From IMG/VR virus record IMGVR_UViG_3300045747_000505: DNA of 64,000 nt, one strand, 5' to 3'. Positions 5,968-56,151 of this stretch are shown piece after piece. The position numbers and the translations under genes were made by a program. This DNA is from a virus (Duplodnaviria > Caudoviricetes). Numbering within the stretch: position 1 is the stretch's first letter; every line of letters starts with the position of its first letter. The notes under the pieces are model-generated. The model was not told the origin of the DNA. It ran no database searches and saw only the letters and a list, made by a program, of their open reading frames with translations.

Positions 5968-6252
5968 TTGGAAGGGACTTTGAAAGTGAAGATTGTCTAC
6001 GAACCGCTGCCCGCCGGCATCAAAGCTCACAAGTTCTATCCGGGCGAGCGCTGCGTCCTCATCGACGACAAGCACCTCGCGGTTTGGGTCGACAATCAAC
6101 TCATTCAAGCCGACCGTCCACTCCCGCAAAACAGCGGCTACCTGCGCGTCACCAACGAGCCGTTGCCCTCCATCCTCTACGCCCACCACACTCAAATTGC
6201 CCACATCGCTCGCGAACGCATCACCCTGCCGTTCGCACTAAAGGAGTTCTGA
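5968..6252 (+). CDS. Hypothetical protein
   Basis: Downstream of promoter at 5951; TGATG overlap with next gene. Confidence 0.6.
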   Translation: MEGTLKVKIVYEPLPAGIKAHKFYPGERCVLIDDKHLAVWVDNQLIQADRPLPQNSGYLRVTNEPLPSILYAHHTQIAHIARERITLPFALKEF

Positions 6253-7298
6253 TGAAAGACGTTCTGTTTCAAGTGACCTACGGGTCGCGCCTCTACGGCA
6301 CCAACACGCCCACCTCGGACACCGACCTCAAGTCCGTGTTTCTGCCAGCCATAGACGACCTGCTGCTCGGGCGCAAGCTCGGCACCTCCAAGACGCGCGT
6401 GCACAGCGACGGGTCGCCAGTGCCCGACAAGAGCTCGATGCCTGACAACGGCGTGGAGCACGAGTACTTCCCGCTTCAGACCTTCGTGCGCGACTTCGTG
6501 CAGGGTCAGACGTACGCGCTCGAGATGGCGTGGGCGGTCCTCGCCAACGGGCCGGATGGCCACACTCTTCAAGCGGCTCGTGAGCACGAGCTGATGGTCG
6601 AGCTGGTCGAGAAGTTCGGCAACTGCTCGGTGTACTCGATGGTCAGCTTCGCGATGAAGCAGACGTTCGACTACGTGAAGCGCGGTGAACGGCTGGAGCA
6701 GGCTCGTGAGCTGCTCGACGTGCTGAACGTCTGCATGGAGATGTTCGACTGTCTCGACGCAATGGACCCAGGCAGCTATCTGAACCCGCGCCTCGACACC
6801 GTGCTGCCCGACGGCGAAAAGCTCCTTCACAAGCTGTCTCGTGAAACCAACCTCGAGCTCGGCACCAGCGTGAACAACAACCGCGCCTTCGAGACGCTGA
6901 AGCTCAACGGCCGTGAGTACCTCGAGACTACGGCGGTGTCACACCTCGTGCTCGCCGTGCAGAAGCTGGTCAGCGAGTACGGTGAGCGCACCAATCGCGC
7001 TGCGAAGGAAGTTGTCGACTACAAGTCGCTGAGCCACGCGGTGCGCGTCTATGAGCAGGCTCTCGAGCTGCTGGACACCGGCCGACTGACGTTCCCACGT
7101 CCGAACGCCGACTACCTGCGCTCAGTGAAGCAGGGTCTCGTGCCGCTCGAAGAGGTGAAGGCTCGACTGCTCGAGCTGGACGAGGAAGTCCTCGCCAAGC
7201 AAGAGAGCTCTACTCAACGTCGCAAGACGCCAGAGCTGGTCGAGGCATCGGAAGAATGGTTGCTGACGAAGCTCCGCCAGCTGTACCTTCTTGACTGA
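6252..7298 (+). CDS. Pol-beta superfamily nucleotidyltransferase (RlaP/Nuc-transf-like)
   Basis: YGSRLYGTNTPTSDTD (GS...DxD) motif; AAGGAG RBS; C-terminal helical domain with KSLSHAVR. Confidence 0.85.
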   Translation: MKDVLFQVTYGSRLYGTNTPTSDTDLKSVFLPAIDDLLLGRKLGTSKTRVHSDGSPVPDKSSMPDNGVEHEYFPLQTFVRDFVQGQTYALEMAWAVLANGPDGHTLQAAREHELMVELVEKFGNCSVYSMVSFAMKQTFDYVKRGERLEQARELLDVLNVCMEMFDCLDAMDPGSYLNPRLDTVLPDGEKLLHKLSRETNLELGTSVNNNRAFETLKLNGREYLETTAVSHLVLAVQKLVSEYGERTNRAAKEVVDYKSLSHAVRVYEQALELLDTGRLTFPRPNADYLRSVKQGLVPLEEVKARLLELDEEVLAKQESSTQRRKTPELVEASEEWLLTKLRQLYLLD

Positions 7299-13035: not shown

Positions 13036-13238
13036 ATACAACGATGAACTACTGGGTGTCCCTTGAAGCTGTACGACTTTTCTGCTTACGCTCACCGAAG
13101 AGCGGAGCGCCACGCTGCTGAAGCGGTGGCACGAGTCGTGGCGACCGTCGAGCAGCCCTGCTCAGTCGTCGAGCTCAAGACCAAGGTCAACGAGTGGTTT
13201 CGTCTTCACAACGAGGTGCTTCGTCAAGCACACAACTA

Positions 13239-14087
13239 ATGCTCATTCGACTTCACTCTGATCTTCACCTCGAAGGTTTCTACGGGCGCGACGCCGAGAC
13301 GCTCGCTCTCGACTTCATTCCACCAGACTTCCGTGATGCTGAAGCGATGCTGGTGCTGGCTGGCGACATCTCGTCGCACGGCCCGCAGGTGCTCGACTTC
13401 ATCGAGGTCTGCCGTCAACGGTTCAAGTACGTGCTGTACATTCCAGGCAACCACGAGTACTACCGGCACAACTACGACACGTACGGCGTGACGCTCGACC
13501 ACGAGCTCATCGCTCGCTACGGCGAGGCCAGCGCTCAAGTGTTCTGGGCGATCAACTGTGTGACGTGCACCGACATCGACGGTGTGCGCTTCGTCTACGG
13601 CACGCTGTGGGGTGATGGTGGTCCGACGATCGCCGACCAAGCCAAGACCGGCTGGTTTCTCAATGACTTCCGCCTCATCAAGCGACGGTTCAGCGATGCC
13701 GACGGTTCGACGCGCGATCGCCTCCTCACCGTGGCTGACATGATCAAGATCTACAAGGAGCACCGCGACACCATCGACACCTTTCTGCGGCTTGAGGATG
13801 GTCCAGAGAAGAGCGTCGTGGTCACTCACCACCTGCCGAGTCGTCGTCTCGTGTCGCCCCGCTTCCGTGAGAAGGACGGCAGCGACGGAGCGAACGGTGG
13901 GTTCGTCGGTGACTGCGAGTTCATTCTCGCCTACGACCACGCGCCGGACCTCTGGCTGCACGGTCACACGCACGACTTCATCGACACAAAGTTGTGGAAT
14001 ACCCGCGTCGTCTGCAACCCAACTGGGTATCGTGGCGAGTGGGACAATGGTCTGTCCGGAACGAATAACTTCTTCATCGAGGTGTAA
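13239..14087 (+). CDS. Calcineurin-like metallophosphoesterase
   Basis: SDLH, AGDI, PGNHEYY, THHLP and HGHTH motifs. Confidence 0.92.
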   Translation: MLIRLHSDLHLEGFYGRDAETLALDFIPPDFRDAEAMLVLAGDISSHGPQVLDFIEVCRQRFKYVLYIPGNHEYYRHNYDTYGVTLDHELIARYGEASAQVFWAINCVTCTDIDGVRFVYGTLWGDGGPTIADQAKTGWFLNDFRLIKRRFSDADGSTRDRLLTVADMIKIYKEHRDTIDTFLRLEDGPEKSVVVTHHLPSRRLVSPRFREKDGSDGANGGFVGDCEFILAYDHAPDLWLHGHTHDFIDTKLWNTRVVCNPTGYRGEWDNGLSGTNNFFIEV

Positions 14088-16128: not shown

Positions 16129-17538
16129 ATGCAAACGGAGATCACAATGACTGATGCACTCAATGCCCAACTCGCCGACGCGCTCACCACGCTCGGCGCC
16201 GCCATGGAAGAACGCAACCTTCGCCAACTGGTTAGCGTCCGCACCATCGACCGTCTCGAACCCATCGAAGGCGCCGACCTGATCGAGCTCGCCGTGATCG
16301 GTGGCTGGAAGGTCGTTGTCAAGCGTGGTGAGTTTCAACCGCTCGACCAGTGCGTCTACTTCGAGATCGACTGCTTCCTCCCCGATGGCAATCCGGCCTG
16401 GCAATTCCTGGTCGACAAGTCCAGCCGCCTGTTTCAAGGCGTCAAGGGTCACAAGTTGCGCACCATCAAGCTGCGCGGCCAGATCAGTCAGGGCCTGATC
16501 CTGCCGATCGACGCTCTGCCGGTCGTTGCCTACGTTGCGGCCACCGGCGCCGTTGGCCGCAAGCACCTCGGTGCCATGCTGACCGACGAAGTTCGCAACG
16601 AGGCTGACACGCTCTGCCAAGTCATCGGCATGAAGGACGACGAAGGTGTCGAGACCGAGGTCACCGACTTCGACTTCGCCAGCCTGCTCGGTGTCGTCAA
16701 GTGGGAAGCCGAGCTGCCCGCCTGCCTGGCTGGTCAAGCTCAAGGTCTGTTCCCGAGCTTCATTCGCAAGACCGATCAAGAGCGCTGCCAGAACCTGGTT
16801 GGCGAGATCTTCGGCTACGATGACCGGCTGGTTCCGTTCGACGTCACGCCGCTGATCCCTGAAGCGCTGGCTGCTCTGCAAGAGCAAGGCATTCTGAAGC
16901 AGGTCGATGGCGAGTGGTTCAAGCTCCTGAAGGCCAAGGCCGACCGTGACGCTCGCTACGAGATCACGATGAAGCTCGACGGCAGCAGCACGACGTTCTT
17001 CCACCGCGACGGCGAGGTCGGTGTTTGCAGCCGCAACCTGCAGCTCAAGATCAGCGAAGAGAACGCCGAGAACAGCTTCGTTCGCATGCTGTTCGACAGC
17101 GGCCTGAACTGGGCTCTGCCGACGCTCGGCAACGTCGCCATTCAAGGCGAGCTGATGGGTCCTGGCATTCAAGGCAACCGTGAGAACCTGAAGCAGTTCG
17201 AGTTCTTCGTGTTCGACGTGCAGCTGATCGACGAAGGTCGCTTCATGACCGCCGACGAACGGATGGCGCTGATGAACCAGCTGGCTCGAATTGGCGTCAA
17301 CATGGGCATCGTCCATCACGCTCCGGTGTTCGACGGCAAGAAGTTCGTCAGCGACTTCATCACGCCGACCTTCACGCTGGACGAGCTGGGCATCACCGAT
17401 GTCGCTGGACTGCTGAAGTTCGTCGAAGGTCCGAGCCTGAACCACGCCATCCGTGAAGGTGACGTCTTCAAGCGCGACGACGGCAAGTTCAGCTTCAAGG
17501 GAATCAACAACCTGTTCCTGGCCAAGGAGAAGGAATGA
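16129..17538 (+). CDS. RNA ligase (Rnl2/DRB0094-like) with N-terminal OB-type domain
   Basis: Motif I KLDGSS, QGELMGPGIQGN, FFVFD, EGDVFK, SFKGINNLFL. Confidence 0.92.
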   Translation: MQTEITMTDALNAQLADALTTLGAAMEERNLRQLVSVRTIDRLEPIEGADLIELAVIGGWKVVVKRGEFQPLDQCVYFEIDCFLPDGNPAWQFLVDKSSRLFQGVKGHKLRTIKLRGQISQGLILPIDALPVVAYVAATGAVGRKHLGAMLTDEVRNEADTLCQVIGMKDDEGVETEVTDFDFASLLGVVKWEAELPACLAGQAQGLFPSFIRKTDQERCQNLVGEIFGYDDRLVPFDVTPLIPEALAALQEQGILKQVDGEWFKLLKAKADRDARYEITMKLDGSSTTFFHRDGEVGVCSRNLQLKISEENAENSFVRMLFDSGLNWALPTLGNVAIQGELMGPGIQGNRENLKQFEFFVFDVQLIDEGRFMTADERMALMNQLARIGVNMGIVHHAPVFDGKKFVSDFITPTFTLDELGITDVAGLLKFVEGPSLNHAIREGDVFKRDDGKFSFKGINNLFLAKEKE

Positions 17539-39483: not shown

Positions 39484-40137
39484 ATGACGACCAAGGTTCA
39501 CTACCTCTACAAGACTGTCTGTCAAGCGACTGGTCGGTTCTATGTAGGAATGCACAGCACTACGAACATCGACGATGGATACATAGGTTCAGGTGACCTG
39601 TTGCAAGCGTCCGTCAAAAAATACGGCAAAGCGGCGCATGTAAAACAGATCCTCGAGATGCTCCCGTCTCGTGAGGCGCTGAAGCTCGCCGAAAAGGCGC
39701 TGATCACCGAAGACCTTCTAAAGGATCGTCGGTGTATGAATGTTGCACCAGGCGGAGGAGGCGGGCGACACGCCGGCTTTACGCATGATGAGGCCACCAA
39801 ACAGAAGATCGGCAAGAACACCCGTTCGCGCGACACGATGGTTCGTGAGAAAATATCTCGTGCGTTGGTTGGACGCACCAACGATGAACATTCTGCTCGC
39901 CAACTCGCCAGGTTTGCAGACAAATCCAATCATCCAAAAACCAAAACGCTGTGCTTGACATCGCCGGATGGAGCTTCTGCATCATTCGTTGGCTACGAAG
40001 CATTTTACACTCGATGCAAAGAGCTCTCAATCTCTGCAACGCGATTGATCAAGTTCTTTGGATCCGCAGTGCCAGACGGCACTGTCAAGGGCGGTAAAAC
40101 CGTCACACATAATACCATTGGCTGGAGCCTCAAATGA
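39484..40137 (+). mobile_element. Free-standing GIY-YIG homing endonuclease (Seg-like) with NUMOD3-type motif
   Basis: YLYKT...FYVGMHST...DGYIGSG; NVAPGG; HDEATKQKI; more A-rich codon usage than neighbours. Confidence 0.85.
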
Positions 40138-41279
40138 AAGATGTCTGCGTATATGTCGGTCGCTTCTCGCCGTTCCACCTGGGCCACGCCTACGTGCTCG
40201 AACAGGCTCTGAAAAGCTACAAGCTGGTTGTCGTGCTGGTCGGATCGTCCGACAAGGCTCGCACGCCCCGCAATCCGTTCACCTTCGACGAACGGCGTGA
40301 CATGATCTACAGTTGGGCCGGCATGCCTGACAACCTCATCGTTCTGCCGATGCGCGACTTCGCCTCCAACAACATGTGGATCAAGTCGGTGCAGGCAACC
40401 GTGAAGGGTGCCATCAAGAACTTCTGCCATCCGCGTCGCCTGATCCTCACGGACATCTACTTGACCGGCTCTGATCGCGACGACACGACCTGGTATCTGA
40501 ACGCCTTCCCGCAGTGGAAGACTGACCTGCTCCCGCCGCGCCAGCACAACCCAGGCACCGCCAACGACCTGAGCGCGACGAGCGTTCGCGAGGTTCTGTA
40601 CGAGACGCCTGATCGCTTGATCGCCACCAACGTGCTGCGGCTGATGAACAAGCTGCCGCTGTCCACCGTCAAGTTCCTCGAGAACTTCGTGACTCGCGAG
40701 GACTCGCCGATCTGGGCGCTGCGCAAGGAGTACGAGTTCGTCGCCAAGTCGAAGGCAGCCTGGGCCGGTGCGCCGTACCCAGTGAACTTCATGGCCGCCG
40801 ACGCCGTCATCATTCAGTCTGGCCACGTGCTCGTCGTCAAGCGCGGGAACTATCCAGGCTACGGCCTCTGGGCTCTGCCTGGCGGCTACGTGAACGTCAA
40901 TGAGCGCATTCGTGCTGCCGCTGTTCGTGAGGCCATGGAGGAGACCGGCATTCGCCTCACCACCGGCAAGCGCGCTGAAGAGCTGACCCGAATCATGCTC
41001 AACAGCTCCATTCGGGATCATGAGATCTTTGATGACCCGAAGCGTAGCGAACGTGGTAGAATGATCACCGTAGCGTATCTGATGCGCCTCGATGACACGA
41101 AGCCGCTACCCGCCGTGGCTGGACAGAAGATTCCCTTCTACGAGGCCGATGGCAAGGACGAGCTCGAGACCCTCGAGGTGATCTGGCTCCCGCTCGACCG
41201 AGCATTCGACAATCCGACCAACTGGTTCGAAGACCACCTGCAGATCCTTCAATGGGGTGCAGATCAACTGGATGACTGA
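40134..41279 (+). CDS. nadM: Bifunctional NMN adenylyltransferase / ADP-ribose pyrophosphatase (NadM-Nudix)
   Basis: GRFSPFHLGH (HxGH), RNPFTF, SATSVR; Nudix box GG...ERIRAAAVREAMEETG; DDPKRSERGR. Confidence 0.95.
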   Translation: MKDVCVYVGRFSPFHLGHAYVLEQALKSYKLVVVLVGSSDKARTPRNPFTFDERRDMIYSWAGMPDNLIVLPMRDFASNNMWIKSVQATVKGAIKNFCHPRRLILTDIYLTGSDRDDTTWYLNAFPQWKTDLLPPRQHNPGTANDLSATSVREVLYETPDRLIATNVLRLMNKLPLSTVKFLENFVTREDSPIWALRKEYEFVAKSKAAWAGAPYPVNFMAADAVIIQSGHVLVVKRGNYPGYGLWALPGGYVNVNERIRAAAVREAMEETGIRLTTGKRAEELTRIMLNSSIRDHEIFDDPKRSERGRMITVAYLMRLDDTKPLPAVAGQKIPFYEADGKDELETLEVIWLPLDRAFDNPTNWFEDHLQILQWGADQLDD

Positions 41280-44213: not shown

Positions 44214-45431
44214 ATGACATACGTGGTGATTGGCGCGAACTATGGCGACGAGGGCAAGGGTCTCATGACCGACTACCTGACTCGCCAGCATGGGGTTGAC
44301 CTCGTCTGCCGCTTCAACGGCGGTGCGCAGGCTGGCCACACGGTGGTGGACGGCGACTACACGCACGTCTACAAGCACATCGGCTCTGGCCACAAGGCTG
44401 GCGCGCAAACCTATCTGGGCAAGCGCTTCATCGTGAATCCGCTGCTGCTGGTCAACGAGGTCGCCGAGCTGTCGCAGACCGTTGCGCCGGCTGGTGAGGT
44501 CGTTGTTCACCCAGACGCGATGGTCACCACGTTCTACGATATGGTCCTCAACGCCTCGCTTGAGGAGGCACGTGGTGTTGACCGCCACGGCTCCTGCGGC
44601 TTCGGCATCAACGAGACCGTGACGCGCCACCTGGCCGGCTTCAACCTGATGATCAAGGACGTGAAGTCTGCATCGCTTGGGCTGCTCACGCAGATGATTG
44701 AGGAGCTGGCCACCATGTGGGTACCAAGTCGCGCTCACGACCTTGGCCTCTCGCGTCAGCTTAAAGACCCCAACTCGCTGCTCAGCAAGACGCTCGACCC
44801 TGCCAACTACGCGCAGTACGCAAGCGACCTGCTCAACGGCGCCGCGCTGCTGACGGTCATGGACTCCAACCAGTTCATCACTGGCTCGTCGGTCCTCTTC
44901 GAGGGTGCTCAAGGTCTGGCGCTCGACGAGCTGCTTGGTGAGTTCCCACACGTCACTCGCTCGCTGACTGGGCTGCCGTACGCCATCGAGCAGGCTGCAG
45001 AGCTCGGCCTCGAATATCTGCAGCCGTTGTACGTGACGCGCTGCTACGCCACTCGGCACGGCGCTGGTCCGTTGCCGAACGACAATCTGGCCGTCTCGAA
45101 CAAGCCGCTGGTCGACACGACGAACGTCACCAATCAGTGGCAGGGCAAGCTGCGCTACGCGCCGCTCGACATCGTGGCGCTGCGGCGACGCATTCAAGCC
45201 GACTATGACCGTAGCACGCTGCTTGCTCACATGGTTGGCGTCGAGCTGAACAGCCCAGAGGTCGCCGTGACGTGCCTTGATCAGGTCGGCATGGGCGCTT
45301 GGTTCGACGTGGACGGCTTCATGCAGTTCGTTCAGGTCAAGGACATTCCTCAGTTCATCGAGAACGCGGTTGGGTTCAAGGTCACCTTCACCAGCGCTGG
45401 ACCGACGGCTACCACAGTTTCGATTCGTTGA
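44214..45431 (+). CDS. purA: Adenylosuccinate synthetase-like protein
   Basis: GANYGDEGKG, RFNGGAQAGHT, HGSCGFGI, FEGAQGLALD, TRHGAGP. Confidence 0.88.
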   Translation: MTYVVIGANYGDEGKGLMTDYLTRQHGVDLVCRFNGGAQAGHTVVDGDYTHVYKHIGSGHKAGAQTYLGKRFIVNPLLLVNEVAELSQTVAPAGEVVVHPDAMVTTFYDMVLNASLEEARGVDRHGSCGFGINETVTRHLAGFNLMIKDVKSASLGLLTQMIEELATMWVPSRAHDLGLSRQLKDPNSLLSKTLDPANYAQYASDLLNGAALLTVMDSNQFITGSSVLFEGAQGLALDELLGEFPHVTRSLTGLPYAIEQAAELGLEYLQPLYVTRCYATRHGAGPLPNDNLAVSNKPLVDTTNVTNQWQGKLRYAPLDIVALRRRIQADYDRSTLLAHMVGVELNSPEVAVTCLDQVGMGAWFDVDGFMQFVQVKDIPQFIENAVGFKVTFTSAGPTATTVSIR

Positions 45432-49892: not shown

Positions 49893-51413
49893 ATGAACCG
49901 CCAAGAATCCCGCGCCATTTCCACCAAGTTCGATGTCCGCACGCTGCTGCAACCCAAGGACACCGACAAGCCGTATCCGATCATCGACGACCTGCTCGTC
50001 AGCCTGATCTTCCAGACCGACAGCTACAAGTTCACCCACCCCTTCATGTTCGCCGAGCTGAACAAGCGCGTCGGCAAGCCGCGTGTTGTTGGCATGTCCA
50101 GCTACGGCGAAGCCCGTGTCGGCCGCAGCGAGAAGGTTACCGTGTTCGGTGGCCAGATGGGCGTCAACAAGCTGTTCTCACGTCCCATCACGATGAAGGA
50201 CGTCGATGCCGCCGAAGCCTTCGCGCTGGCCCACTTCGGTCGTCCGCTGTTCGCCCGCTCTGCCTGGGAGAAGGTCGTCAACGAGTACGATGGCTACATC
50301 CCCGCCATCATCCGCGCCGTGCCGGATGGCACCGTCATCCGTGGTGGTCTGCCGATCTACTCGGTCACCGTCCTGGACATCGACCTGTTCTGGATGTCGA
50401 GCGGCATCGAGACCGCTCTGCTCCGTGCCTACTGGTACCCGACCACCATCGCCTCGCTGGACCGCGACACCAAGGTCGAGCTCAAGCGCTTCTACGAAAT
50501 CGGTGGCGCCGATCTGGCCGGTCTCGAGTTCGCGCTGCACGACTTCGGCGGTCGCGGCGTCACCTGCTCCGAACAAGCGCAGGTTGGCGGTGCCGCTCAC
50601 TTGGTCTCCTTCATGGGCTCCGACACCATCGAGGGTGTGCTGGCCATGAACTACTACTACGACTCGCCGATGTCGGCCTTCTCCGTGTTCGCCACCGAGC
50701 ACAGCGTCGAGTGCTCCTTTGGTCTGGACGACGCCGGTGAGCGCGATTACCTCAAGGCGCTGCTCATCAACGCCGTCGAAGGATCCATCGTCTCGATCGT
50801 CATCGACGGCAAGGACATGTGGCGTTGTGCCGAGACGCTGTGCTCGCCCGAGTTCCGTGATCTCATCATCGCCTCCAAGGCCAAGGTCGTCTTCCGTCCT
50901 GACTCTGGCGACATGCTGGAAGTTGTGCCGCGTCTCCTGCGCCTGCAAGACGCTGCCTTCGGTCACACCGTCATCAACGGCTACAAGAAGATCAACTACG
51001 TCGGCATCATCTACGGCGACGGCGTCGATCGCATGAACATGCTCACGATGGTCGGCAACATCATGGCCATGGGCTACGCTCCTGACTGCATGGTGTTCGG
51101 CTCCGGCGGTGCGCTGCTGATGAAGGTCAACCGCGACACCTACAAGTGGGCTCAGAAGGGTTCATGCCTGTTCTTCGAAGACGGCACCACCCTCGGCATC
51201 GCCAAGGACCCGGTCACCGACCATGGCAAGAAGTCGAAGGAAGGTCTGATGACCGTGTTGCGCCACAAGATGACCGGTGAACTGAGCGCCGGCCGCCTCG
51301 ATCTCGGTCCCATCAGCGACGAGTTCGAAGACATCCACGTGCTGATGTACCACACCGGCAAGGTCTACAACAAGACCAACGCTGCTGAAGTGCGCGAACG
51401 CGCTGCGGTGTAA
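49893..51413 (+). CDS. nadV: Nicotinamide phosphoribosyltransferase (NAMPT)
   Basis: TDSYKFTH, ETALLRAYWYPTTIAS, LHDFGGRG, AHLVSFMGSDT, ATEHS, RPDSG, YGDG, FGSGGALL, KDPVTDHGKKSKEG. Confidence 0.96.
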   Translation: MNRQESRAISTKFDVRTLLQPKDTDKPYPIIDDLLVSLIFQTDSYKFTHPFMFAELNKRVGKPRVVGMSSYGEARVGRSEKVTVFGGQMGVNKLFSRPITMKDVDAAEAFALAHFGRPLFARSAWEKVVNEYDGYIPAIIRAVPDGTVIRGGLPIYSVTVLDIDLFWMSSGIETALLRAYWYPTTIASLDRDTKVELKRFYEIGGADLAGLEFALHDFGGRGVTCSEQAQVGGAAHLVSFMGSDTIEGVLAMNYYYDSPMSAFSVFATEHSVECSFGLDDAGERDYLKALLINAVEGSIVSIVIDGKDMWRCAETLCSPEFRDLIIASKAKVVFRPDSGDMLEVVPRLLRLQDAAFGHTVINGYKKINYVGIIYGDGVDRMNMLTMVGNIMAMGYAPDCMVFGSGGALLMKVNRDTYKWAQKGSCLFFEDGTTLGIAKDPVTDHGKKSKEGLMTVLRHKMTGELSAGRLDLGPISDEFEDIHVLMYHTGKVYNKTNAAEVRERAAV

Positions 51414-52643: not shown

Positions 52644-53221
52644 AGCTTCTTGAAATCCGAGCCGTCGGCAACTCGCCGATCGACCTCTCCGACCCAGACA
52701 ACAGGCCTGGCGCCTACGAGCGTGAGGGTGCTGCACGCGACTCCTACGCGCAGAAGATCGCCAAGGGCTCAGCCGAAGCCGACAAGATGGCTGAAAAGCT
52801 CGGTGGCACGCTGAAGAAGCATCCGCCAAGCCAGTTCATTTCAGGCGACACGCCGTTCTGGACAATCTCTGGTCTCGACTTCGAAACGAAGGGTGGCAAG
52901 AAGGTTCGCTGCTCAATCGACCGTGAGCCTCATCACCGTCGTCAGGCGCTGTTCTTCCGCAACACCTTTCTGAAGCATCCGAAAGGCGTTCACAGCCACG
53001 ACAACGAGGCGAAGCGCACCATCGAAGCCCTTGAGCGTGAGATCAGCTCTGCTCATGAAGAAGCCTTCGGCAAGCGGGCGCTTGGCACCGACTTCCTCTA
53101 TGATTCGAACGACAAGGACTACACGCTCATCGGCCTCAGCGTTGGCATTCCGCTGATGGACGGCGTCAAGGGAGTTCAGTTCGTCAAGAAGGTCATCGCT
53201 CTCATCACGAAGCAGTTCTAA
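52640..53221 (+). CDS. Hypothetical protein
   Basis: ATGA-coupled; phage codon usage. Confidence 0.7.
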   Translation: MKLLEIRAVGNSPIDLSDPDNRPGAYEREGAARDSYAQKIAKGSAEADKMAEKLGGTLKKHPPSQFISGDTPFWTISGLDFETKGGKKVRCSIDREPHHRRQALFFRNTFLKHPKGVHSHDNEAKRTIEALEREISSAHEEAFGKRALGTDFLYDSNDKDYTLIGLSVGIPLMDGVKGVQFVKKVIALITKQF

Positions 53222-53895
53222 TGCCAACCGCCCAGCTTCGCTCGCTGGCTGCCAAGTCAGACAAGACTCTTGGTGACCTCGAGCGCTACTGGGCAGACGC
53301 CAAGGTTGAAGCTCATCACAAGTTCAAGAAGAAGGACAAGCACTTCTGGGCCTACGTCGTCGGTATCGTCAAGCGCCGCGCTGGGCTGAGCGAAGAGGAC
53401 ATCAGCTTCAAGACCTATCTGCTCCTCATCGAGGACGACAAGGCGCACGGCAAGGCTCTCGAGCGAACAGGCTTCTGGGGCAAGGCTGGTGCGGGTTGTA
53501 TCATTTTAGCTCGGGACACGGGAAGAATCTGCCTGCCGAAGCGAAGCAAGGACGTGGAGCAACCACACACTTGGGGAACTTGGGGTGGCGCTATCGACGG
53601 AAGAGAGGCGCCTAAGGCCGCTGCAGAGCGCGAGGTCCGTGAGGAAGCTGGATATACAGGCAAGCTCGAAATCGTTCCCCTGTACGTTTATAAGCATCCC
53701 AGTGGCTTCACCTACCACAACTTCCTGGCCATCGTGGACAAGGAGTTCGAGCCAGAGCTGAACTGGGAAACGTCGACCTACCGTTGGTGCTCGCCAACGA
53801 AGCTGCCGTCGCCGCTGCACTTCGGTCTGAAGGGTCTGCTTGCCGACGCCGCAAGCTGGCAGAAGATCAAAGACGCTCAACCTAAAAAGACGTAG
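53221..53895 (+). CDS. Nudix hydrolase with N-terminal helical domain
   Basis: Nudix box GGAIDGREAPKAAAEREVREEAG. Confidence 0.88.
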   Translation: MPTAQLRSLAAKSDKTLGDLERYWADAKVEAHHKFKKKDKHFWAYVVGIVKRRAGLSEEDISFKTYLLLIEDDKAHGKALERTGFWGKAGAGCIILARDTGRICLPKRSKDVEQPHTWGTWGGAIDGREAPKAAAEREVREEAGYTGKLEIVPLYVYKHPSGFTYHNFLAIVDKEFEPELNWETSTYRWCSPTKLPSPLHFGLKGLLADAASWQKIKDAQPKKT

Positions 53896-53924
53896 CCTGA
53901 AGACTGAGACATAGAGTAAAATAC

Positions 53925-54256
53925 AGACATGGGTGCTACAGCCATTCTGTAGTGATTGTTGTAATTCGGAGCAAGTTGAAGGATTCTGGACGCGGGTTCG
54001 ATTCCCGCCAGGTCCACCACAAAACACATACCGCCGGCTGTAGAATTCGGCAACACCTTAGGGACGATCCACGTGGTGTGTGTTTTGTAATGGGCCTGAC
54101 CTGGTCTCGACAGGGTTACGGAGATGCGCACACGCAACACGAGAGTCGACCGACGTAATCGGCGAAAACACGCTAAGTGCAAACGAAGCAAACTTCCGTC
54201 TGGCTGCTTAATACCCAGCTCACGGTGAGGCTAACCACCTTATAAAGCAACGGTGA
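53925..54256 (+). ncRNA. ssrA: Circularly permuted (two-piece) tmRNA; tag ANEANFRLAA*
   Basis: 3' acceptor piece GCGGGTTCGATTCCCGC-CAGGTCC-A-CCA ends at 54019 and precedes the 5' piece GGGCCTGAC-CTGGTCTCGAC at 54092; G3.U70 pair; tag frame 54179-54211; outer ends approximate. Confidence 0.9.
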
Positions 54257-54282
54257 GGACAGGACACTTCGGTGTCCTGTCC
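54257..54282 (+). terminator. Hairpin after tmRNA coding piece
   Basis: GGACAGGACAC-TTCG-GTGTCCTGTCC. Confidence 0.75.
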
Positions 54283-54306
54283 GCTATCATTTATACTGGA
54301 GACCCT

Positions 54307-54795
54307 ATGCGCAAGCTGCTCGCCGCTCTCATGCTCACCCTCTCGCTGGGCGCTGCTGCCCAGTCGGAGCCGCATGTTCAGATCGGCGCAGCAGACTTCA
54401 CGGTCTTCAAGGTCTATCCGAACTTTGCGCTGCTCTTCGACCGCGAGTCGATGCATGGTGATGCCAACACCGGCGACGCGGTGATGACGATCAAGATTCA
54501 CCTGAAGTCCCCAGACCCAAGGCTCGTGCCGAAGTTTCCGGTCAAGTTCCTCGTCAACACTCTCTTCATCGAGTGCGAGAAGGATCAAGTCACGGTGCTG
54601 GTCAGCCAGATGTATGACGATGAGAATGACCTCGTCGGCATTCGTCGATACTACCCGCCCATTTCGAACCCACACTCAGAAGGTGCGCCGGCCACTGAGG
54701 TCCTCGACTTCGCCTGCGCCTCGAATCCGAAGTACCCGAACAAGCGTAACACGCCTATAATTGTTACACCTGACGATGACCGGAATGGTGTATAA
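54307..54795 (+). CDS. Secreted protein (surface-adhesin-like small beta protein)
   Basis: Signal peptide MRKLLAALMLTLSLGAAA; two Cys. Confidence 0.75.
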   Translation: MRKLLAALMLTLSLGAAAQSEPHVQIGAADFTVFKVYPNFALLFDRESMHGDANTGDAVMTIKIHLKSPDPRLVPKFPVKFLVNTLFIECEKDQVTVLVSQMYDDENDLVGIRRYYPPISNPHSEGAPATEVLDFACASNPKYPNKRNTPIIVTPDDDRNGV

Positions 54796-55764: not shown

Positions 55765-56151
55765 ATGATCATGTAGATCCGCACTTCCAAAACCTACCTC
55801 TACGCAATCACACGCCGCGATCTCCCACTCGCGCAACAGGCTGTTCAAGCTGGCCACGCCGCCATTGAGCACGCTTACCAACATGGTCGTCCGCACGATC
55901 ATCATCCGTCGTACATCAAGCTGACGACGCGAGACAAGGCCGCTCTTCTCGAGCTTCAGGCCACGCTTGCCACGCACGGCATTCAAACCGCAGAATTTCA
56001 CGAGCCATACAAAGCTTGGGGCCTCACCGCAATCGCCTGTCTTCTCGGCGAGGAACAACGCTGTCTGTTACGACAGTTACAGCTTTGGACCACGCAGAAT
56101 GCTCAGGTTCGTGATACAATGGACACATCAACCACTCGGAGTTTCTCATGA
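55765..56151 (+). CDS. Peptidyl-tRNA hydrolase type 2 (Pth2)-like protein with in-frame TAG at codon 4 (missed by the ORF track)
   Basis: ATG ATC ATG TAG ATC CGC...; KTYLYAITRRDLPLAQQAVQAGHAAIE...FHEPY...GLTAIA; TGA overlaps the next ATG. Confidence 0.75.

Follow-up and report, generated by a model that had tools for sequence, protein, structure and literature searches.

The window, a 64,000-nt stretch of DNA, is phage DNA, as is evident from its genes for a T4-type clamp loader, DNA ligase, RNA ligase and virion structural proteins and from its tRNA genes. It also encodes NAMPT, NadR-like and NUDIX enzymes, and all of its long ORFs lie on one strand. On the plus strand, at 53927-54302, ARAGORN calls a permuted tmRNA with the tag peptide ANEANFRLAA. 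Two Rfam models match the same region: beta_tmRNA (RF01850) at 53884-54282 with 140.6 bits (E 6.7e-43, model positions 1-331 of 331; curated cut-off 84 bits), and tmRNA_permuted (RF04321) at 53957-54211 with 125.3 bits (cut-off 47 bits). Because the tool suppresses overlapping members of a clan, RF01850 is the best-scoring model of clan CL00001. No riboswitch was found at the gene by Rfam. The first-pass annotation had recognized a circularly permuted gene of the two-piece type on a phage, and with ARAGORN and the permuted Rfam models both matching, that recognition holds. The features of the locus are listed below.

53917..53922, plus strand: candidate -10 hexamer TAAAAT, inferred from its alignment to the TAuAAU block of RF01850
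53934..53954, plus strand: 5' hairpin of 8 pairs directly before P2, an insertion relative to the bacterial model
53957..54019, plus strand: acceptor piece, from Rfam alignments, sequence reading and RNAalifold pairs with compensatory changes
53957-53988, plus strand: 5' strand of P2, within the acceptor piece
53992-54008, plus strand: T-arm GCGGG/CCCGC with loop TTCGATT, by sequence reading
54009-54015, plus strand: 3' acceptor strand CAGGTCC, by sequence reading
54016-54019, plus strand: discriminator A and encoded CCA (ACCA), by sequence reading
54020..54091, plus strand: 72-nt spacer, predicted to be excised, from sequence reading, folding and RNAalifold
54092..54282, plus strand: coding piece, ending in 3' hairpins, from sequence, Rfam and RNAalifold
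54092-54098, plus strand: 5' acceptor strand GGGCCTG, by sequence reading
54111-54139, plus strand: 3' strand of P2, within the coding piece
54150-54162, plus strand: hairpin CCGA/UCGG of the pseudoknot-1 region, within the coding piece
54179..54211, plus strand: tag frame ANEANFRLAA, with resume codon GCA at 54179 and stop codon TAA at 54209-54211
54257..54282, plus strand: 3'-terminal G+C-rich hairpin of 11 pairs with a UUCG loop, the last helix of RF01850
54817..54891, plus strand: amber-suppressor tRNA, anticodon CUA, called by ARAGORN and Rfam, 515 nt downstream of the tmRNA

Anatomy of the gene and its tag

The acceptor (3') half of the gene lies upstream of the coding (5') half on the same strand, and CCA is separated from G1 by an intervening segment. 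This order, already noticed in the first pass, is confirmed by sequence reading, ARAGORN, RF01850 and RF04321. The two halves are complementary in a 7-bp acceptor stem, GGGCCTG (54092-54098) with CAGGTCC (54009-54015), in which the pairs G1-C72 and G2-C71 are followed by G3.U70, so that the alanine identity element claimed in that annotation is indeed present. When eight phage and bacterial genes were folded with RNAalifold, which was run without the Rfam structure as input, P2, the T-arm, the acceptor stem, the spacer stem and the hairpin of the pseudoknot-1 region were recovered, with compensatory changes at 27 of 48 pairs. Acceptor pairs 4-5, for instance, covary, being CC/GG in the window, GA/TC in the viral locus L091, CG/CG in Xanthomonas phage XacN1 and GG/CC in Accumulibacter.

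The tag read in the first pass is the peptide that ARAGORN calls. Related viral loci have similar tags, ANEANYRMAA in L091 and ANEGNFRLAA in L111, and three of the four codon changes between L111 and the window are synonymous. A strain variant in a wetland run (X4) carries three synonymous changes and one Leu to Met replacement, giving ANEANFRMAA. Tag-codon changes among these four genes are thus mostly synonymous or conservative. Sampled betaproteobacteria, whether their tmRNA is one-piece or two-piece, nearly all have ANDERFALAA or close variants; the window tag begins with AN(D/E) and ends with LAA, as this peptide does, and differs in the middle (E3, A4, N5, R7). The LAA end and the predominance of synonymous or conservative codon changes argue for an ordinary degradation tag under purifying selection. 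The earlier suggestion that a phage tag could reroute rescued proteins is unsupported, since the tag ends in LAA like the sampled bacterial tags. Some other phage permuted tmRNA genes have tags without an (L/I/V/M)AA end, the last residues being KVA, ANA, AYA or RYA in ARAGORN frames (loci L010, L015, L038, L052, L073, L106 and L001/L002). If these frames are right, such tags are better candidates for an altered protein fate than that of the window.

The spacer and the flanking elements

The segment between the two halves had been described as a 72-nt spacer that folds on itself, and both its length and its fold are borne out. The closing stem joins 54019-54032 with 54075-54088 in 14 pairs, including one G.U, and the acceptor stem together with the spacer folds at -41.4 kcal/mol (z = -5.5), a stability reached by none of 200 shuffles. 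The predicted fold pairs the discriminator with base -1 and leaves the CC of CCA in a 2x2 internal loop, with the spacer stem beginning at the final A. The spacer contains no gene, its longest start-to-stop frame being 5 codons.

Such a structure is not peculiar to the window. Among 54 distinct viral spacers of at least 28 nt each, the ends pair with at least 6 pairs in 49, and the median folding z-score is -4.5. The four bases preceding G1 are T, G, A and T in 48, 40, 45 and 50 of these spacers, respectively; the corresponding leader in the window is TAAT. Viral spacers have a median length of 73 nt (range 4-175), in contrast to a median of 4 nt (range 3-38) in bacterial genes of the beta type. 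The few bacterial genes with longer spacers, in Thauera (L158, L187), have the same closing stem and the same TGAT-type leader. The spacer hairpin is a family feature with compensatory changes; in the precursor, its stem is both conserved and covarying.

Upstream of the acceptor piece, the -35 element that goes with the candidate -10 hexamer is weak, and a consensus scan made no promoter call at 53917..53922. A -10-like hexamer is nevertheless found at the matching upstream distance in each of three close relatives, including L091 (TATAAT) and L111 (TTAAAT, with TTGATA 17 nt upstream). L091 and L111 also have a short hairpin with a GCAA loop at the position of the window's 5' hairpin. At the other end, the terminal hairpin covaries in L091, L111, L107 and L081, and the T-run that follows it is poor; this hairpin may be read as both a terminator and the end of the coding piece.

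Viral and bacterial relatives

A scan of IMG/VR with a T-arm/acceptor pattern yielded 107 viral loci, among which ARAGORN called 73 permuted and 18 standard tmRNAs; 17 loci have the T-arm match only, with no tmRNA gene that ARAGORN can call. The nearest relatives of the window gene reside on phage genomes from IMG/VR, one of 349,660 bp (97% complete) and another of 350,089 bp (with direct terminal repeats, 100% complete). Genes of the same type are also present in five cultured phages, namely Xanthomonas phages X1, BUDD, XacN1 and JGB6 and Stenotrophomonas phage vB_Sm_QDWS359, none of whose records carries a tmRNA annotation. Four of the five records instead have a 'hypothetical protein' CDS overlapping the gene. 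USV41083.1 (BUDD), WEU67367.1 (JGB6) and UQM93886.1 (QDWS359) lie over the T-arm match, and WEM34384.1 of phage X1 overlaps the first bases of the gene only. The unannotated genes include those at loci L001, L002, L004 and L005 (GenBank OQ427096, ON758385, OQ436456 and ON331942). Two-piece tmRNA genes thus routinely go unannotated in phage records.

Identities and phylogeny were determined on a core alignment of 197 columns. The window gene is 81% identical to L091, 79% to L014 and 75% to L111, and 70% identical to the two-piece genes of Thauera and Accumulibacter. With FastTree, it groups with L091, L014, L107 and L111 (support 0.95), and this viral subclade lies within a 37-member clade (support 0.96) that includes 27 bacterial permuted genes of the Rhodocyclaceae type. 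A fast IQ-TREE run with aLRT on 121 sequences keeps the viral subclade (aLRT 87-91), with an aLRT of 0, on 197 columns only, for its join to the bacterial genes and of 0-53 for the deep branches. We conclude that the window gene belongs to a viral-only subclade, carried by phages of about 350 kb, of the beta-type family.

The closest known bacterial system is the betaproteobacterial two-piece tmRNA (RF01850; Thauera, Accumulibacter), which was defined by Sharkady and Williams 2004, as cited in PMC3985003 and PMC11915505. The window gene shares with it the acceptor-piece-first order, the P2 helix between the pieces, a model without pseudoknots 2-4, a hairpin and a terminal hairpin after the tag, G3.U70, the encoded CCA, and a 10-residue tag of the form AN...LAA. 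It differs in residing in phage DNA rather than in a betaproteobacterial genome, in its tag (ANDERFALAA is near-invariant in the bacteria), in its structured 72-nt spacer as opposed to 4 nt in most sampled Rhodocyclaceae, in the extra 5' hairpin, which inserts 25 nt that the model lacks, in acceptor pairs 4-5, which are flipped to C-G, and in that no SmpB gene was found in complete phage relatives.

It had been proposed that the permuted form might be a clue to the host lineage. [quoted passage not shown] Nevertheless, a BLAST search of 401 genomes of Burkholderiales, the order of Accumulibacter, found no near copy; the matches cover the T-arm only and reach 62.6 bits at best, as against 150 bits for viral L091. 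The exact 36-nt T-arm and acceptor sequence has no match in 185,579 species genomes, and a degenerate T-arm/acceptor pattern matches many phyla. Nothing indicates that the gene was recently acquired from any of the bacteria sampled. Moreover, the cultured phages that carry this gene type have Xanthomonas and Stenotrophomonas as hosts, and the tmRNA of these bacteria is taken to be one-piece because the permuted forms belong to the three bacterial clades (PMC11915505). With the nearest copies being viral and the gene type shared by phages of these hosts, the clue is weak, and little about the host can be read from the permuted form.

The nearest bacterial branch in the FastTree phylogeny is a permuted tmRNA of a 5.3-Mb Burkholderiales genome (G373). 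This genome has two tmRNA genes, one standard (RF00023, 225.6 bits) and one permuted (RF04321, 123.5 bits), at loci L266 / L270:9811-10171 (G373:C1:892401-892640) and L268 (G373:C1:396167-396529), and the permuted copy has an odd 28-residue tag according to ARAGORN. A prophage around the permuted copy was considered and rejected, as its neighbours are chromosomal (an MFS transporter, a phosphonate-binding protein, cytochrome bd and catalase). Lying amid ordinary chromosomal genes, this copy provides no host lead for the window phage.

Two-piece tmRNAs of phages have already been published. In a survey of 18,146 phage genomes, 53 of 133 unique tmRNAs were called two-piece by ARAGORN (Buchholz 2022, PMC9004378), so that the first-pass remark that most phage tmRNAs are one-piece understates the record; permuted genes in the table of that survey include those of Xanthomonas phage XacN1 and Stenotrophomonas phages Moby and Mendera. 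Like the window gene, the published ones are permuted, have a full tag and belong to large phages rich in tRNA genes, whereas the nearest relatives of the window gene are uncultured phages of about 350 kb. The tmRNA of OM43 phage Melnitz is of the alphaproteobacterial type and comes with a glutamine riboswitch (PMC9004378), unlike the window gene, which is of the beta type and has no Rfam riboswitch. One-piece phage tmRNAs, from mycobacteriophages and others, and DS6A are likewise phage-borne components of host ribosome rescue, yet they have the standard order or are tag-less, while the window gene is permuted with a canonical tag (PMC11915505). With the window gene, this known class gains a beta-type member, found in an uncultured phage of some 350 kb. 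A modest novelty lies in the occurrence of the beta type in phages of this size, the partial linkage to tRNA(CUA), and the long, stem-closed spacers as compared with the 4-nt spacers of bacteria.

Proposed function and competing explanations

From the sequence comparisons, we consider it likely that the phage gene yields a working two-piece tmRNA of the betaproteobacterial kind. What can be observed directly is how the gene is built, which family it belongs to, and how it is conserved and covaries in related phages. Processing, charging, tagging and the benefit to the phage are proposed as follows. A single precursor of about 350 nt would run from the promoter near 53917 to the terminal hairpin at 54282, with the acceptor stem continuing into the spacer stem across the small internal loop at the CC of CCA. 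Host tRNA-processing enzymes would excise the 72-nt spacer, with RNase P cutting 5' of G54092 and 3' trimming halting at the CCA end at 54019. Cleavage of the precursor is logically required because charging needs a free CCA end, and for two-piece precursors in general, RNase P together with a 3' tRNA-processing enzyme is the presumed machinery (Himeno 2014, PMC3985003). The acceptor and coding pieces would remain joined by the 7-bp acceptor stem and a P2 of about 20 bp, and host alanyl-tRNA synthetase would charge the RNA via G3.U70, compatibility with AlaRS and SmpB being assumed. With host SmpB and EF-Tu, the RNA would enter ribosomes stalled at mRNA ends; translation would resume at GCA 54179, append ANEANFRLAA and stop at TAA, and the LAA end would direct the product to host proteases.

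A two-piece tmRNA built on the same principle is functional in Caulobacter (Keiler 2000, cited in Himeno 2014, PMC3985003). There too the gene is permuted, and one precursor gives two base-paired mature RNAs that tag proteins; the Caulobacter gene is alphaproteobacterial and chromosomal, and its operation was shown experimentally. For the phage, the gain would probably be additional capacity for ribosome rescue while it infects the cell. The need for rescue could arise as mRNA is degraded during infection and as the phage amber-suppressor tRNA drives read-through to mRNA ends.

The partner protein is probably supplied by the host. SmpB (PF01668) is absent from four complete cultured phages (XacN1, X1, JGB6 and QDWS359) and from the relatives of about 350 kb, G403 and G407; as a control, the same search found SmpB in an Accumulibacter genome. 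A tblastn search with Accumulibacter SmpB found none in the window, which represents 64 kb of a genome of about 350 kb. The lack of SmpB in the window and in six complete or near-complete relatives points to reliance on host SmpB, with which the phage tmRNA would work.

A more elaborate proposal couples the tmRNA to the neighbouring tRNA(CUA) as a phage-run pair and regards the long, stem-closed spacer as a phage-specific device for processing or timing. The suppressor would carry ribosomes through UAG stops, those of the host included, to mRNA ends, and the phage tmRNA would clear and tag these ribosomes and their products, making stop-codon read-through affordable. Two tRNA(CUA) genes lie downstream of the tmRNA in G403/L091, L014 and L071, and XacN1 has two about 1 kb upstream of it; no tRNA(CUA) lies within reach of the tmRNA in G407 or L107. 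Since suppressor tRNAs are known to increase the tmRNA load (Ueda 2002, cited in PMC3985003), a functional link is plausible even though the linkage is partial, and if upheld, it would give phage tmRNAs a concrete job. The proposal as a whole nonetheless appears doubtful.

The order NAMPT, small ORF, NUDIX, tmRNA is common to the window, G403 and L014/L071/L099. A Pfam search of ten ORFs around the tmRNA found no translation-related family. An ORF at 55765-56151 on the plus strand begins M-I-M-stop (TAG) and is then open for 124 codons; the ORF 55777-56148 has no Pfam match at E 0.01.

The phage RNA may alternatively act as a competitor or modifier, displacing host tmRNA on SmpB and ribosomes and so altering protein fate, or taking over from a host tmRNA lost to cleavage or shut-off. 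In the middle of the tag, E3, A4, N5 and R7 depart from the ANDERFALAA of nearly all sampled betaproteobacteria, the host's SmpB would have to be shared, the window encodes an RlaP-like nucleotidyltransferase, an RNA ligase and a phosphoesterase of the RNA-repair type, and the tag-less phage tmRNA of DS6A inhibits host tmRNA when expressed in E. coli (PMC11915505). However, both ends of ordinary degradation tags, AN(D/E) and LAA, are kept, a complete tag frame maintained by purifying selection is in keeping with normal tagging, and nothing in the sequence points to resistance to nucleases. We regard this explanation as unlikely.

Phages often acquire tRNA-like genes, and tmRNA genes are common integration sites. 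The gene could thus be a captured bacterial copy that is carried as a passenger without a selected function, a notion with which the 17 viral loci that have the T-arm match only would agree. In the window, however, both halves are complete, the helices covary across the viral-only subclade, tag changes are mostly synonymous, and the best bacterial BLAST match is confined to the T-arm, all of which makes a mere passenger very unlikely.

As to the permutation itself, an independent event in the phage lineage, unrelated to the bacterial two-piece lineages, had been offered as the alternative to a host clue. The long viral spacers, the extra 5' hairpin and the poorly supported deep branches of the tree would allow for it. 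It is highly improbable in view of the match of RF01850 over all 331 positions as the best model of its clan, the grouping with other permuted genes, the 70% core identity to the genes of Thauera and Accumulibacter, and the same stem closure and TGAT-type leader in the longer spacers of Thauera.

An assembly artefact that swapped the two halves, named in the first pass as a possible refutation, is virtually excluded even though the contigs of the probable source run (run X1, records 1 and 6) break at the conserved T-arm, because a 1150-nt contig from a wetland metagenome (run X3), of a sample and study distinct from both possible source runs, covers 53525-54674 with 0 differences and the gene order is the same in 73 viral contigs and five cultured phage genomes.

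The window DNA is present in pond and wetland metagenomes, and no RNA library was listed as holding the 2.5-kb stretch around the gene. A search of RNA libraries for the gene region gave small shares only (0.05-0.08). One library (X10) yielded two contigs, both from relatives, of which one spans the T-arm only. The other, a freshwater metatranscriptome contig (record 10), is 94% identical over 54103-54186 of the coding piece, beyond which its tag is another one, with the in-frame reading ANDDTYGALRLAA. It represents a relative's tmRNA in an RNA library and is at most a weak hint of expression; RNA ends, and hence processing, cannot be read from contigs.

Several further genes of the window, all on the plus strand, deserve mention. 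Directly upstream of the tmRNA lies a NAD-salvage set comprising a NadR-like cytidyltransferase/NUDIX protein (40134-41279), NAMPT (49893-51413) and a NUDIX hydrolase (53221-53895). The RNA-repair-type genes, at 6084-7298, 13194-14087 and 16129-17538, encode the RlaP-like nucleotidyltransferase (PF10127), a metallophosphoesterase and an RNA ligase (PF09414 with an OB-fold domain), and these domains suggest that the phage may repair cleaved tRNA-like RNAs. Finally, 44214-45431 encodes an adenylosuccinate-synthetase homologue (PF00709) whose best PHROG is phrog_1211, PurZ-type, '2-aminooxy adenylosuccinate synthetase'; judging from this match, the phage DNA might contain 2-aminoadenine in place of adenine.
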